DNA from: Escherichia coli
GTDB taxonomy: Bacteria > Pseudomonadota > Gammaproteobacteria > Enterobacterales > Enterobacteriaceae
Assembly: GCF_003018115.1 (NCBI RefSeq)
Contig: NZ_CP027458.1
Direction: 5' to 3' (one strand)
DNA length: 64,000 bases
Numbering within the stretch: the stretch's first letter is position 1; each line of letters begins with the position of its first letter. Position numbers: made by a program. This document shows, piece by piece, positions 57,301 to 63,300 of the stretch.

Positions 57301-60300
57301 GTTGATGAACTGGGGCACTGGGAGGAATGGCGTTCACGTGCTGAACAAATTCGTCGGCATGTTCTGGAAAATCTTGATGCCTATTTGTATCAATTGTCCG
57401 AAAAGGTTACTGCGAATGGCGGGCATGTATATTTTGCCCGTACCAGAGAGGATGCAACCAGTTACATACTGAAGGTGGCGAAAGAAAAAAACGCCAGGAA
57501 GGTTGTTAAATCCAAATCAATGGTGACTGAGGAAATTGGCATGAACGCCGTTCTTCAGAAAGCCGGGATACCCGTGATTGAAACAGACCTTGGGGAATAC
57601 ATTCTTCAGCTTGCACACGAACCGCCATCACATGTGGTTGTTCCGGCAATACATAAAGATCGCCATCAAATCCGCAGAGTGTTAAACGAACATCTGGGGT
57701 ATGAGGGACCAGAAACTCCTGAAGCAATGACATTGTTCATTCGAGAGAAAATCAGACAAGATTTTCTCAGTGCAGAAGTTGGTGTAACGGGATGTAACTT
57801 TGCTGTTGCAGAAACAGGGTCAGTCTGCCTTGTTACAAACGAAGGCAACGCACGTATGTGCACCACATTACCTAAAACACATATTGCTGTTATGGGGATG
57901 GAGCGTATTGCTCCGACATTCCAGGAGGTGGATGTTCTTATTACCATGCTTGCAAGGAGTGCTGTCGGGGCCAGACTGACGGGTTATAACACCTGGCTTA
58001 CAGGTCCAAGAGAAGAAGGACATGTTGACGGCCCGGAAGAGTTCCATCTCGTCATTGTTGACAATGGGCGTTCAGAGGTTCTCGGCTCAGAATTCAGCGA
58101 TGTATTGCGCTGTATTCGCTGCGGTGCCTGTATTAATACCTGTCCCGCTTATCGCCAGATTGGTGGACATGGCTATGGCTCAATCTACCCGGGCCCAATC
58201 GGAGCAGTTATTTCCCCGTTGCTTGGTGGCTATGAAGACTTTAAGGACTTACCTTATGCCTGTTCATTGTGCACTGCCTGCAATGGGGTATGTCCGGTAA
58301 AAATACCTCTGGCACAACTAATACAAACACATCGGCAGGTTATGGCAGAGACCAAAATAACACCATCAACAGAACGCCGTATAACAGGAATATTCAATTA
58401 CGTAAACAGTCATCCGGCATTGTGGAAAGTTGGCATGATTGCTGGCGCGAAAACAGCCAGTCTGTTCATCAGGAAAGGAAAAACGCCGATTAGTGTTGGA
58501 GCGATAAAAGAATGGACTGAAGCCAGAGACCTGCCATCACCTGATGGAGAAAGCTTCCGTAGTTGGTTCAAGCGACATAAGAAGGAGGGGTAATTTTATG
58601 GAAAACAGAGAGGAATTTCTCGTTGCGATCGCCAGAAAGCTTGGCAGACCAGTAAGACATATTCCCGAAGCAATGCCGGAGCCTGTAAATACGCTGGCTA
58701 CAACACGTTTAACTGAGTTGACATCAGACCAACGCTGTGAGGCGTTTATTAAATTTGCCTCGGAAGTGATGCTTGCCGAGTGTGTTCTGGTGTCGCCTGA
58801 GAACGCACCATCAAAAGCCTTAGACATCTGTTGGAAGTTCGGTTCCGGGCCAGTCATTATCAGCAACGATCAACGACTGGTCGATACAGGGATTACGCCA
58901 TTGCTACAAAAAGAAATGGGCGCTGCTCTGTGGGATCCGGAGAAGGGCGATGAAAATATCCATATTGCTGAAAAGGCAAAAACTGGTGTTGTTTTCGCTG
59001 AGTATGGGCTGACAGAATCAGGAGGCATTGTCTTATTCTCCGCACCAGAACGTGGGCGCTCAGTAAGCCTTTTGCCTGAAGCATCATTATTTGTTTTACG
59101 TAAAAGCACCATTCTTCCCAGAGTGGCTCAGCTTGCGAAGAAACTTCATGATATGGCTCAAAAAGGACAACGAATGCCTTCCTGTATCAATATAATTGGA
59201 GGACCAAGTTCAACTGCCGATATAGAGTTGATTAAAGTTGTCGGTGTTCATGGCCCTGTATATGCAGCCTATCTAATCATTGATGACTGCAAATAACAAT
59301 TATCCTCATGCCTGAGCCAATATATATAGTTCCGGCTCAGGCATCATCATTTTCATCTGTTATTTTCTCTATCAGCCCCAAATTTTCCTGTGATGTCGCA
59401 TCGGTTGAAAGTCCAACAAGCGCATTAGACATTAAAGCGTAAGCATCAACGGATGCGCCATATTGACAAAAAACGTGGCGGCCGACAATGAAAAGTAAGC
59501 GCTCCGTCTGTGACGTTTTGTGATGGTTGTCCTATCTGGCTACAATCGCGTCCATCGATATTAAAGTGCGCCCAGATCCTGGACAACTTATGCTGCCTGA
59601 CTCAATCGATATTGTACTGGGCTAAGACCGCCAAGTTTTTCCTTTATCCTCAATTAATTATAATTGTTTATGTAATCGATGATGTCTCGCTTTAAGCCCT
59701 CCACATTTTTATATTCATTGAGGTAATAACATTCTGATTTCAATGTTCCCAAAAAGCTCTCTATAACTGCATTATCAAGACAATTTCCCCGGCAAGACAT
59801 ACTCTGGACTATGCCGCTATCCTTTAACCATCGTTGCCACCGGGACATCTGATATTGCCAACCTTGATCGCTGTGCAGTATGGGGTGTTCATCTTTCGAC
59901 AGCTGTTTCAGCTCATCCGTAAACATAGTCGGCACCATTGAAGGTTTAGAACGAGTAGCGAGGTTATAGGAAATTATTTCTCCATTATAAAGATCCATGA
60001 TTGGCGATAAATACAGCTTCTTGCCATTAACTTTAAATTCAGTGACATCTGTAACCCACTTCTCGTTGGGGCATTTTGCATCAAAAACTGATAATCCCGG
60101 AAACGTACTTAAGGGCAGAGGGGGACCGCCTTCTGCCCTTTAATAAACAGGATATTAAGATTACTCGCCCAGGACTGCCAGTATCAAAAATGCACCTGCA
60201 GTAAGCATGGCAAGTTTTTCCCATACAATGGGACTGTCATCCCTCTTTTGTTTTCTTTTTCTCATATAAATGATGGTGTTTACTCAGACGCGAGAGTATT

Positions 60301-63300
60301 TCGTCTGTGTCTGTATGTCTGATTATTTTACTCATTTGATTACGCATCAGAATGCGCTTAGCACAGAAGTTGATTTTAGCCGTTGCCAGGTTTTTATTAA
60401 TAGTCAGCGTGGCGGCATGATATGCATGCCGCCACAATATTAACGCCCGGGCATAATCATGATGTACTGTCGACTCTTCCGCGGCTCTTGCCAGCTGAGA
60501 CCAGGACATTCGGTGCAGATCACCTTGTATAAGGTCCGGGGATGTCATAGCGGACTCCGGTTGTGCATGTCTTGTTTATTCCCCGGCGGGGACGCAGACG
60601 CCACGGAGAGCAAATTCCCCCACGTTTTCTTTTTTCAGCGCGGTGAAGGCATCCCGACAGGCTTTTTCAGTACGAAACGCCTGACTGTGAACAGCCAGTG
60701 TGGGTTGCCGGGCATCGCCGGAGGAGACATTAAAGGGGGATGAGAGCCAGAAAATCAGGATCCACATAGAACAGCCTTATGATTGTGTGCGTTTGTATTT
60801 TTCCAGGATGCCGATAGCCTGCAGGGGCGCTTCGTGGATTTCACGGATACATTCTGCGTCATGGATATTTTCTCTGTACCGGGTTCGTTCCAGCAGTATG
60901 TGGTGCATGTGGAGCATTCTGGCCAGTGCGGCGCTGAGTTCATTAATATGGTGTTCCCGGAAAACGGGACCGTCATGCATACGGCACAGGGGGATCACTT
61001 CCACATCGTCACAATGTGCCCGCAGCCACTCTTTTGTGACGGCTGCATCATCGGTGTAAAACCATGTGCCGGGTGTACCGTTAGCCAGAAACCGGATTTT
61101 CCATGCTTCAGGGGACGGAGGCGTCTGTCTGCCATCATTCATACGGGTTATCTCATTCTATGGGCTGAATGCTGCTCAGAATCAGCCTGCTGAGACTGTC
61201 AGGGCTGCCGCAGCGGCGACCGGTCGTTTTGCTGTAGCATTCCCGGTGCGTGTGGCACCAGGCAGTGGGTGTTTCATGAAGACGAACGCGCCGCGCTTGT
61301 TCTTTGTGGATAAGGAGTCCGGTGTGAGTTTTGATGTTTTTCATGTGCTTTCCGTTTCTTTCCCGGTGACAGCTGTGCCACACATGACGGGGGAATGTAA
61401 CCTTCGCTATCTTACTGAAAATATGCCATTTGCAGGAACCGGCGGTCAATCCTGTATGCAGGATTTGTATCACAGTTCCGGATGAGAGGAAGACGTATGT
61501 GGCCGTAAAAAAGCCGGCATTACTGCCAGCTTTAGTCATCGCAGTTAAGTAAACCAGTCGGCTGACATCCCGGAAATGTCTCTCAGACATATCCGGGCGG
61601 CAGGCACTGAGTGTAAAGGGCCCGCAGGCCCTTTTGAATACGGAGTATCAGAACGAGTAACGGAAGTTAGCGTTGACAGCATTATCAACGTTGTAATTAC
61701 CAAAGGCGGATTTCTCAAACTCCAGTCCAAAGCGGACGTTATCCCTGATTTCTGCATTCAGGCCAACGGACATCAGCATACGGCTGTCCTTTTCACCTTT
61801 GATGCGTTTTTCACCAGATGCATCCCGCAATACGGTTTCGCCATTAGCCAGCAGGTCGAACTGGTAGCCCAGACCGGCACGGGCTGTCACTTTCCAGTCC
61901 TTACCAGAGAAGGATTTACCCACATCCACACCAGTTCGGCCAATCAGCGGATTGTAGTCCTTGTCCTTCATGGACAGATGCATTCCCTGGTCCTTCCATG
62001 CAAACTGTTTACCGGATACAGAACCGTAAACCAGCTCAGCCTGTGGCTCAATCCAGGCATCCTCAGTGACATGATAGCGGTAGCCCGCTTCTGCACCGGC
62101 ATACCATGAATGCGTGCTGTAATCACGGGTTCCGAGTCCGGCAAAGGTTGCTGTGTACTCATTATCATGGTGAACATACTTGCCAATCAGGTCGATATAG
62201 GCACCGGAATCAAACATGGCGGAAGCATACAGGCCAGCCCCCACAGACTTCGTTTTACCGCTGAAAACATCTGCGGAGGCACTGCTGTCAGTGTGTGTGA
62301 CAGTGAAACCGGTAAACAAATCCAGTCCGTCCAGCTTATGTTTTTTGTCGACCCCGACCTGAACGTGCGTGTAGTTGTCACTGAAACCACCACTGGCAGA
62401 GCCGGTACCGCTCATGATGCGTGCCCATGCACCGGCTTCGCCGTTGATGTCACGCAGGTCACCCATACGTTTGTTCAGGTTGTTGACCTCGTTCAGAAAC
62501 GCTTTATAGTCAACAGAGAACAGGGCGGCGGCATTCCGGGTTGCTTCCTTGTTTGCTACCGTGTTATAGCCTGTCAGTGACCATGTTATTTTGTCATCGG
62601 TTTCCCGGGTTGTAATGACCGGCGTGACATTACTGAAACCTATCGCCTGTTCACTTCCTTTAAAGACATCTTTACTGCTGTTCCCCGGTGCACTCACCAG
62701 TTCAATATCCAGTTTTTCTCCGGAGGGTTTGTTCAGAAAATCAACCAACAGAATATTGTCCTTACCTGACAGCTTTTTGTTTACTACCAGCTTATCCGAA
62801 TTGTTCAGGTCCGTACGCATCGCATAGGCGCTGTTGCTGGTTGCCAGCTCATCGACCATCAGCGTATGGAATTTCTTATTGTTTGCGCTGTCAGTGAAAT
62901 AGACCATACTGTTTGTACTTTTCAGTGTTTTCAGCGCAGAATCTCCGGTTAGTTGCCACCAGGTGTTGTTCATAGTGGCAGATGCTGACGGGGCATGAAT
63001 TGCACCGCGGTATGCCGTATTAAAACCACTCAGTAATCCGACCGCGAGTCCCCGGGATGCCTTCTCAGACAATATGCCCTCTTTACCTGATTCAGTTCCG
63101 AAGCTGATTGTGGCCTGTTTATCAGAAATAATATCACCAACAACAGATGCCTGGTCTCTGGCTTTCAGTACTGATGAATCAGACATCAGTTTAAATCCGC
63201 CATCAGCCATATTGATGGTCGGTAAAAAAGCAGCATCATCTGAATTCACTGGTGTACCGGTAAGCAGAAGGGAAGCGTCACCAATATCAATGCTTCCACT

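Follow-up and report, generated by a model that had tools for sequence, protein, structure and literature searches.

The interval between the lactate utilisation (lut) operon and a SPATE autotransporter gene, within the 64,000-nt stretch of Escherichia coli DNA analysed here (the window), is read, with a probability of about 0.6, as a dead recombination junction adjoining an intact cluster of four small genes, the last of which encodes an ANR-like protein. This interval represents an ordinary mosaic junction of a virulence plasmid of the Shiga-toxin E. coli type, composed of dead IS ends and a plasmid-backbone scar, none of them functional. Beside it, downstream of the protease autotransporter gene, lies an intact, conserved and uncharacterised operon of four small genes. 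The ORFs of interest are located between the end of lutC (59296, plus strand) and the SPATE stop codon (61648, minus strand), and the full arrangement is common to about 38 plasmids and 43 genomes. Three minus-strand ORFs reported in an earlier note on this DNA were found where it had placed them, at 59654-59998 (114 aa), 60237-60548 (103 aa) and 60777-61142 (121 aa).

The lutC gene is followed by a terminator-like hairpin (59310-59353, plus strand), read from the sequence as GCCTGAGCC...GGCTCAGGC and then a T-rich tail, which is not among the sites listed by the consensus terminator scan. Further on lies the left-end fragment of an IS66-family element (59489-59561, plus strand), which begins with GTAAGCG at 59495 and is cut off by an IS3 element; it is 91.8% identical to a 72-bp segment ending 15 bp before an IS66-like tnpA in L011. 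Where its final ~13 nt meet the IS3 inverted repeat, the two overlap ambiguously. The dead IS3-family element (~59550-60086, minus strand) was delimited by homology to intact copies, and corresponds to the right-end ~537 bp of an IS of ~1.44 kb. The truncated IS3-type integrase noticed earlier was borne out: the 114-aa ORF (59654-59998, minus strand) matches the DDE transposase profile rve of Pfam (8.6e-13), plus rve_3 and rve_2, and the NCBIfam transpos_IS3 profile (5.9e-38, positions 239-352 of 369), and PGAP records the same stretch as an incomplete IS3 pseudogene in the closest plasmids (L004, L012). Owing to the truncation, the transpos_IS3 score (131 bits) does not reach the cut-off of 160. 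Altogether the remnant retains the C-terminal third of the transposase (~144 codons, with the stop at 59654), covering only positions ~210 to 352 of the 369 in the profile, and the N-terminal part is missing. It is 95-96% identical at the nucleotide level to intact copies, such as that of L010 (E. coli tcmA_3), which features a programmed frameshift and 41-nt inverted repeats at 1983-2023 and 3394-3434; homology to this copy ends at 60086. The search for inverted repeats at the IS boundary, suggested in the same note, returned a single terminal repeat at about 59550-59590. Whereas a complete IS3 carries orfA/orfB with programmed frameshift and two inverted repeats, the window copy is devoid of orfA, of the frameshift site, of the orfB N-terminal part and of the left inverted repeat, and is, because of these losses, a remnant incapable of transposition.

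From 60087 onwards, the sequence belongs to an I-complex (IncI1-type) plasmid backbone, recognised by a 60-nt scar (60087-60146, plus strand) which is 95-100% identical to the 3' end of dqlB, as annotated in L003, L005, L018 and L019. The scar retains the last ~5 nt of this type I toxin gene, stop codon included, followed by its terminator hairpin, the arms of which were located by repeat search at 60106-60122 and 60129-60145. Compared with the DinQ-like type I TA locus dqlB/agrB of plasmids, the scar has lost by deletion the toxin ORF as well as any antisense RNA region; beyond this tail, an intact ORF for the ~31-aa hydrophobic toxin was absent from the whole window. The intact I-complex context, found in L019 and L003, reads excA-hok-80aa-...-nuc-SPATE-63a-121-63b-103-dqlB-trbABC-nikBA. 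The recombination junction postulated at the IS3 remnant was confirmed, with the lut operon and the IS66 end on its left and, on its right, the I-complex backbone and then the SPATE-linked cluster. From left to right, the junction consists of the end of the lut operon with its terminator, ~70 bp of the IS66 left end and the right-hand ~537 bp of IS3, which a deletion or recombination probably joined to the backbone at 60086/60087, exactly at the last dqlB bases. The resulting debris would then record the replacement of the trbABC side of the I-complex transfer region by the lut block.

The SPATE gene is visible in its 3' part (61648-64000, minus strand). Sequence comparison supports a likeness to espP within the last 1367 nt only, where identity to the espP gene of L004 is 98.8% and the beta-domain is EspP-like; the remaining visible part is EspI/EpeA-like. 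Identity is 93.1% over all 2353 nt to espI (L006), and 95.8% over 2198 nt to the SPATE gene of L003/L019. The ~500 bp downstream of the SPATE gene (61143-61647), previously considered of ambiguous coding potential, turned out to be composed of a gene, 63a, and of a non-coding spacer of ~300 bp (61345-61647, minus strand), which shows no codon-position bias. The spacer contains a SPATE terminator-like hairpin (61615-61634, read from the sequence) and one promoter-like site (61449-61420, TTGACC-18-CATATT), a count not above that obtained in shuffles; pO157 shares just 61394-61700. Transcripts of the cluster may start in this spacer or arise by read-through from the SPATE gene.

The four genes follow the SPATE gene on the same (minus) strand, in the order 63a-121-63b-103, separated by 10, 9 and 27 nt and each provided with a plausible RBS. 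The two small minus-strand ORFs originally noticed, of 103 and 121 aa, both exist; a third one between them, 63b, had been missed. All four ORFs are intact in relatives and in paralogs ~70% identical at the nucleotide level, with the same order and lengths; paralogs in L005, L009 and L017 are intact and show the start/stop overlap ATGA. Differences are concentrated at third codon positions in all four genes, and dN/dS values range from 0.065 to 0.36 (0.065-0.16 for three of them, 0.36 for the 103-aa gene). Codon-position bias gave no coding signal for plus-strand ORFs, nor for the upstream extension of a 145-aa ORF (61153-61590) of which 63a is the real coding part. Comparison at the sequence level shows the four small genes to be intact, under purifying selection, conserved in order and widely distributed.

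The first gene, 63a (61153-61344, minus strand, 63 aa), matches PHROG 7520, 5148 and 1226 (3e-18 to 7e-16), and the matches are limited to residues 83-145 of the 145-aa ORF. Its differences are 11, 10 and 31 at the three codon positions, with a dN/dS of 0.07-0.11; it is annotated as WP_000789656.1 in L007, and a 63-aa paralog stands without annotation at 7124-7315 of L005. The second gene (60777-61142, minus strand) is a conserved ORF encoding a 121-aa protein with a dN/dS of 0.09-0.16 and no match in Pfam, NCBIfam, PHROGs or PADLOC, represented by just 38 representative clusters among 1.84 billion proteins. Its predicted fold (AF2, pLDDT 79.6) features an N-terminal beta-beta-alpha-beta unit and a C-terminal helical hairpin. 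The C-terminal motif is also found in phage early-region proteins; the product would be a two-domain protein, the hairpin being a module common to them. The third gene, 63b (60576-60767, minus strand, 63 aa), also a conserved ORF, shows the strongest conservation in the cluster, with differences of 8, 5 and 33 by codon position and a dN/dS of 0.065-0.12. It matches phrog_3766 (4.9e-12), and features an N-terminal hydrophobic segment and two Cys; its product is possibly exported. All three would be accessory proteins with phage and plasmid relatives.

I-complex plasmid backbones contain paralogous clusters, as do ExPEC islands (ST131), where the cluster follows iha, and loci beside chromosomal espI; in total, 1349 of 5426 complete E. 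coli genomes, about a quarter, carry one. The window cluster travels with the SPATE gene on plasmids and in chromosomal espI islands. The window cluster is a diverged paralog (~70-72% nucleotide identity) of a five-gene operon (80-63-122-71-83 aa), located in the variable trbA-hok/excA region of I-complex plasmids, and of the iha-linked ExPEC cluster: the last four genes have the same order and sizes, and are similarly packed or overlapping, all being hypothetical or without annotation. Amino acid identity is 68-70% for the 121-aa protein, 85% for 63b and ~58% for the ANR-like core, while the 63a region is ~72% identical in DNA. In the window, the SPATE gene stands in place of the first (80-aa) gene of the I-complex operon, and the ANR-like protein has a longer C-terminus. 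Its DNA has diverged to ~72% identity, which makes the window cluster an old paralog as opposed to a recent copy.

The last gene (60237-60548, minus strand), which has a GGAG SD sequence 7 nt ahead of M1, appears to encode a divergent ANR-like three-helix protein of 103 aa, with a C-terminal extension of ~35 aa. ANR (AraC Negative Regulator) proteins include Aar of EAEC, Cnr of ETEC and Rnr of C. rodentium (NCBIfam NF033650; PMC4038620, PMC4983702, PMC5570504). Against the NF033650 profile (ANR_neg_reg) the protein scores 27.9 bits in full and 30.0 as a 58-aa core, below the cut-off of 32, and three paralogs score 20.6, 25.3 and 28.2; nevertheless, this profile is the best or only family match for four paralogs with mutual identities of 38-73%, over positions 4-53 of 54. 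ANR proteins are spanned by three conserved alpha-helices (PMC4983702), and AF2 predicts in the 103-aa protein three helices as well (16-28, 32-45 and 49-70), in a block with pLDDT of 92-98; the extension is predicted as helical with low confidence. The signature of the family consists of A10, E14, A22, W26, A29, W43, R47 and a conserved Cys (PMC4983702, PMC4038620), and mutation of Aar W45, listed as corresponding to a signature residue, is reported to have abolished activity. When aligned by MAFFT --localpair, Cnr, a bona fide ANR, matches the core with the conserved block ungapped and the A..LW..A and FC motifs kept. By this alignment and inspection by eye, A22, W26, A29 and, towards the end of helix 3, the aromatic-Cys are maintained, whereas W43 is replaced by L and R47 by K/H, and A10/E14 are shifted in register, a second alignment having set the second half differently.

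The protein departs from the family also in size. ANR proteins have 39-80 aa (<10 kDa), whereas the window protein has 103 aa and its espI-linked copy, against which dN/dS was calculated, 107 aa; the I-complex and iha-linked paralogs are of 83 and 90 aa. Like ANR genes, it is located on virulence-associated mobile DNA. Its chromosomal relatives share their locus with an AraC-family regulator: in two chromosomal espI loci a YdeO-like AraC-family gene lies ~0.9 kb upstream of espI and the cluster lies downstream. This arrangement is typical of ANR/AraC pairs (PMC4038620, PMC4983702). Unlike a stand-alone ANR gene divergent from its AraC partner, the 103-aa gene is the last of four, and its plasmid has no AraC gene nearby: tblastn with a YdeO-like AraC query gave no match to either the window or its plasmid relatives, and no AraC gene is annotated in L012 or L019. 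The protein would probably act by binding other proteins rather than DNA, damping an AraC/XylS-type activator and/or modulating H-NS. Small regulators had been among the earlier suggestions for these ORFs, and this remains plausible for the 103-aa protein alone, as an ANR-like match under threshold.

That the ORFs are decaying pseudogene fragments of known genes, left by IS-mediated rearrangements, might be suggested by the adjoining IS debris, by the prevalence of 'hypothetical' products without a Pfam family, and by the degraded state of the 121-aa gene in the espI locus of L006, which shows a flat codon-position pattern and 5 gaps, and is not annotated. The frames preserved in order and length at ~70% DNA identity, the third-position differences and the low dN/dS contradict this reading, as do the hundreds of cluster members in databases, and make it very improbable; the ORFs that the earlier note considered possible leftover fragments, and whose lack of an intact frame in relatives it would have taken as a refutation, are intact genes there. 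A toxin-antitoxin or addiction module, whether a type II pair among the small ORFs or the dqlB system of type I, is just as hard to sustain. Small adjacent ORFs are present on a plasmid, PGAP annotates dqlB directly beside the cluster in relatives, and a 34-aa ORF with a hydrophobic tail occurs at 60161-60265; yet the latter shows no coding-type conservation, the cluster consists of four genes and not of a pair, and dqlB survives as its last ~5 nt and terminator, the only trace of the toxin/antitoxin-like genes once supposed here. None of the four products has a significant TA match in Pfam or NCBIfam, nor any TA or defence match in PADLOC. The lone TA line is a PHD_like antitoxin match (Pfam) of the L006 homolog of the 103-aa protein, which is not significant (E=0.047, 14.1 bits against a cut-off of 27, zero significant stretches). 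By these searches no TA module is present in the interval.

Most homologs of the 103-aa protein are named 'flagellar biosynthesis protein FlgM' or 'flagellin biosynthesis protein FlgM' in database records, which would make it an anti-sigma-28 factor. This is scarcely credible, given that, up to E=0.1, neither the window protein nor three paralogs match a FlgM profile of Pfam or NCBIfam, and that homologs occur solely on mobile elements of E. coli, outside any flagellar gene context; the name looks propagated. More weight must be given to the possibility, which we nonetheless consider rather unlikely, that the four genes are generic accessory genes of mobile elements, involved in establishment, host takeover or anti-defence, hitch-hiking by SPATE and iha without a regulatory link to virulence genes, and that the resemblance to ANR reflects a common small helical fold. 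The 103-aa fold is indeed generic, and 63a, 63b and the 103-aa protein all have PHROG matches. Small proteins that differ in their N-termini share the C-terminal motif of the 121-aa protein; one of them is encoded between gam/kil and gemA/mor of a Mu-like phage, within its semi-essential early region. I-complex plasmid backbones include the paralogous operon, which occupies the variable region trbA-hok/excA. On the other hand, consistent ANR profile matches in four divergent paralogs are not expected from fold similarity alone, the cluster lies between trbA and hok/excA and not in the plasmid leading region (gene order from PMC4288162), and PADLOC gave no match, its library being made of defence, not anti-defence, proteins.

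Taken as a whole, this is an ordinary finding that offers a single modest lead. The junction matters only for reconstructing the assembly of STEC plasmids of the pO113/pRM10042 type, from a lut block and a SPATE-carrying remnant of the I-complex transfer region. The small-gene cluster is more useful: it occurs in ~25% of complete E. coli genomes, among them ST131, where it adjoins iha, and its annotation is poor. One of its genes is usually either left out or placed on the wrong strand, and a second is mislabelled FlgM. As a speculative extension, which we regard as doubtful, the 63a-121-63b-ANR-like cluster may be a regulatory cassette accompanying acquired SPATE genes (espI/epeA/espP), iha and I-complex backbones, and so form an 'anti-virulence brake' operon, in contrast to an ANR gene standing alone. 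Its terminal protein would represent a new long-tailed ANR subfamily restraining an AraC-type activator (e.g. the YdeO-like one upstream of espI) or H-NS, with the three partners in a complex or pathway with it. If ANR-like action is true, the range of the anti-activator family would grow to include virulence loci of STEC and ExPEC as well as common resistance-plasmid backbones, and a testable handle on the regulation of SPATEs of the espI/epeA type would be available.

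After the stop codon of the SPATE (protease autotransporter) gene at 61648, four short open reading frames follow one another on the minus strand, separated by spacers of 10, 9 and 27 nt and each preceded by a Shine-Dalgarno-like sequence: 63a (61344-61153, 63 aa), a 121-aa gene (61142-60777), 63b (60767-60576, 63 aa) and a 103-aa gene (60548-60237). The 103-aa and 121-aa ORFs listed in the earlier note were both recovered at their positions. 63a corresponds to the last 63 codons of a 145-aa ORF (61153-61590), whose PHROG matches (3e-18 to 7e-16) are limited to residues 83-145; exactly this 63-aa gene is annotated by PGAP in one relative, the chromosomal espI locus L007, and most records carry no annotation for it.

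Coding status was evaluated by comparison with espI-linked copies (85-97% nucleotide identity) and with paralogous clusters of about 72% nucleotide identity, located in an I-complex plasmid backbone (L005) and next to iha (metagenome contig L009). Differences at codon positions 1, 2 and 3 are 11, 10 and 31 for 63a, 29, 23 and 68 for the 121-aa gene, and 8, 5 and 33 for 63b, all against L005, and 35, 37 and 54 for the 103-aa gene against L009; in the same comparison, third-position bias is absent from the part of the 145-aa ORF that lies upstream of 63a. The dN/dS ratios (Nei-Gojobori) are 0.07-0.11 for 63a, 0.09-0.16 for the 121-aa gene, 0.065-0.12 for 63b and, against an espI-linked copy, 0.36 for the 103-aa gene. 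The earlier note had allowed that the 103-aa and 121-aa ORFs could be leftover fragments, in which case relatives should lack intact frames; the codon-position bias and dN/dS values of 0.065-0.36 argue against this, and a pseudogene origin is very improbable. The four-gene cluster is intact, selected and widely distributed, and represents a conserved hypothetical operon. The ORFs on the plus strand (of 119, 136 and 139 aa, plus a 41-aa CDS called by PGAP) have no coding-type bias and were set aside as antisense images of the genes on the minus strand; any bias that they do show mirrors the expectation for an antisense frame. The 41-aa CDS (WP_001344629.1) is reported in many relatives (at 5961-6086 in L001 and 6193-6318 in the I-complex record L003) and corresponds to about 61276-61401 (+) in the window; since it lacks a coding-type substitution pattern, this call, antisense to 63a, is probably on the wrong strand. 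Toxin/antitoxin-like genes had also been proposed. A 34-aa ORF with a hydrophobic tail (60161-60265) was tried as a type I toxin and discarded, its conservation pattern not being coding-like; PADLOC returned zero matches, and a toxin/antitoxin identity has very little probability. Neither similarity to phage DNA (60150-61650) nor any RNA family (Rfam scan of 59200-61800, E up to 1) was found, and promoter and terminator scans gave no excess over shuffled expectation.

By "distant" BLASTN with 60177-61344, a copy or paralog was found in 1349 of 5426 complete E. coli genomes, at 949 chromosomal and 645 plasmid places. Two chromosomal loci (L006 and L007) have the cluster 3' of espI, and in L009 and in ST131 (L017) it follows iha. 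In L005 all members are intact, forming a five-gene operon (80, 63, 122, 71 and 83 aa) with ATGA start/stop overlaps, between hok and an ECs1377-family HTH gene; its 63-aa (7124-7315) and 83-aa (6277-6528) ORFs, the latter similar to AraC negative regulators (ANRs), are unannotated by PGAP. pO157 has in common just 61394-61700, the immediate 3' flank of espP.

On the other side of the cluster, the end of lutC (59296) is followed at 59310-59353 by a hairpin, read from the sequence, whose tail is rich in T. The segment 59489-59561 begins with GTAAGCG and is 92% identical to a 72-bp stretch whose end lies, elsewhere, 15 bp ahead of an IS66-like tnpA; it was therefore assigned to the left end of an IS66-family element. 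This fragment directly abuts an IS3 inverted repeat, and about 13 nt (59549-59561, CGTCCATCGATAT) are similar to both elements, so that the exact IS66/IS3 breakpoint is ambiguous. An intact IS3-family element of about 1.44 kb (record L010), which has a 41-nt inverted repeat at each terminus and a transposase made by programmed frameshifting, has a right end that the window matches at 95-96% identity from about 59550 onwards; this homology breaks off sharply at 60086. The truncated IS3-type integrase noticed earlier is borne out: the 114-aa minus-strand ORF at 59654-59998 has hits to the domains rve, rve_3 and rve_2 of the integrase core (8.6e-13) and to positions 239-352 of a 369-position IS3 transposase profile (5.9e-38), which makes it the C-terminal portion of such a transposase. 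The same stretch is called an incomplete IS3 pseudogene by PGAP in the closest plasmids, pRM10042-2 and pO113-4. The element is dead: a single inverted repeat is left, and of the transposase about 144 codons at the C-terminal end. Of the inverted repeats that should bound it, then, one end was located and the second was not; a search of 59250-61750 for long inverted repeats (Frpo-like ssDNA promoter or intact IS ends) yielded the dqlB terminator hairpin and chance-level pairs only. A 78-aa hypothetical CDS just past lutC in pO113-4 (WP_001369996.1) is probably not a real gene; its counterpart at 59337-59586 (-) runs into the IS66-end fragment and is broken in the window into 31- and 46-aa ORFs.

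The last bases of dqlB and its terminator hairpin are found at 60087-60146 (95-100% identity), and the dqlB ORF is absent throughout the window. dqlB is a DinQ-like type I toxin gene adjoining trbA in I-complex (IncI1-type) plasmids. In the undisturbed context (L019; also L003 and L018) the order is excA, hok, an 80-aa gene, eptA-like, DUF2569, HTH (DNA-binding), nuc and SPATE, and beyond it the four small genes, dqlB, trbA, trbB, trbC, nikB and nikA. Judging from this order, IS debris and the lut block have taken the place of everything on the trbA side of dqlB, which bears out the recombination junction that the earlier note had placed at the integrase. The result is a dead IS/plasmid junction; neither the IS remnants nor the dqlB scar is of a new type. 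Among STEC-type E. coli, about 38 plasmids and 43 complete genomes have the whole arrangement (59300-61700) at 97-98% identity. In ST131 the iha-linked copy (L017, 7532-8041) adjoins an L-lactate permease gene fragment and IS debris, which parallels the lactate genes beside the cluster in the window; the two adjacencies may reflect an older shared arrangement.

The visible part of the SPATE gene (61648-64000, minus strand) matches EspI/EpeA-like genes over all its 2353 nt (93.1% identity to espI, 95.8% to the SPATE gene of L003 and L019), and the passenger domain is therefore EspI/EpeA-like, not EspP. Over the last 1367 nt, identity to the espP gene in pRM10042-2 is 98.8%, and to the left the surroundings are those of espP plasmids, despite the EspI/EpeA-like passenger domain; from its sequence, the gene looks mosaic. 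Farther to the left, 40747-53441 (-) holds large ORFs of 479, 705, 1004 and 171 aa and, after them, a 1437-aa ORF; by their size pattern these may be an RTX haemolysin operon and a large adhesin. In pO113-4 a YadA-like protein is encoded upstream of the lut genes.

Among the cluster products, 63a matches three PHROGs of unknown function, and 63b matches phrog_3766; the latter, having an N-terminal hydrophobic stretch and two cysteines, is possibly exported. An exhaustive search with the 121-aa protein returned just 38 representative clusters, and no Pfam, NCBIfam or informative PHROG family was assigned to any of them. Homologs of the 103-aa protein are found in E. coli only, and most carry the name "FlgM"; no FlgM profile matched, and this identity can be considered highly unlikely. 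Its sole consistent family match is NCBIfam NF033650 (ANR), with 27.9 bits for the full protein, 30.0 bits for a 58-aa core and 20.6-28.2 bits for three paralogs, all under the curated cut-off of 32 bits; the matches span nearly the whole 54-position profile. When aligned by MAFFT (--localpair) with two bona fide ANRs of ETEC H10407, taken at the coordinates in PMC4038620, the core is gap-free over the conserved block and retains A..LW..A and the terminal aromatic-Cys, and other residues stand at the published signature positions W43 and R47 (PMC4983702). In a second alignment that included further sequences, the latter half came out differently, making the correspondence there uncertain. The AlphaFold2 model has helices at 16-28, 32-45 and 49-70 (pLDDT >90) and a low-confidence helical C-terminal tail, in agreement with the three-helix description of ANRs. 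Foldseek against PDB gave only non-significant, generic three-helix TPR/MIT-like matches, and a PDB sequence search with the family profile found nothing. By tblastn, hundreds of conjugative plasmids (about 366) contain the core with 53-57% identity, and no feature is annotated under the match.

At two independent chromosomal espI loci, a YdeO-like AraC-family regulator lies 0.9 kb upstream of espI and the cluster lies downstream, an arrangement corresponding to the ANR/AraC pairing known from the literature. The regulator occupies 9194-9931 in L020 and is split by IS2 in L021 (5090-5458 and 6750-7166). Chromosomal espI and plasmid SPATE loci become homologous no more than about 13 bp upstream of the SPATE start codon, and an AraC-type gene was not found in the window or in plasmid relatives. 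The 103-aa protein is therefore labelled ANR-like rather than ANR. It differs from the ANR kind in being longer, sub-threshold and operonic, and the comparison suggests that the last gene of the cluster is best described as a variant of that kind. ANRs bind AraC/XylS activators and/or H-NS (PMC4983702, PMC5570504); the terminal protein would act likewise, by protein-protein binding to such partners, a reading to which we give a probability of roughly 35-40%. The main alternative takes the cluster as generic accessory cargo of mobile elements, used in establishment or in taking over the host and unconnected with virulence regulation; we regard it as only slightly less probable. Most of what is seen here is ordinary, and the ANR-like operon, together with its annotation errors, is a modest lead.
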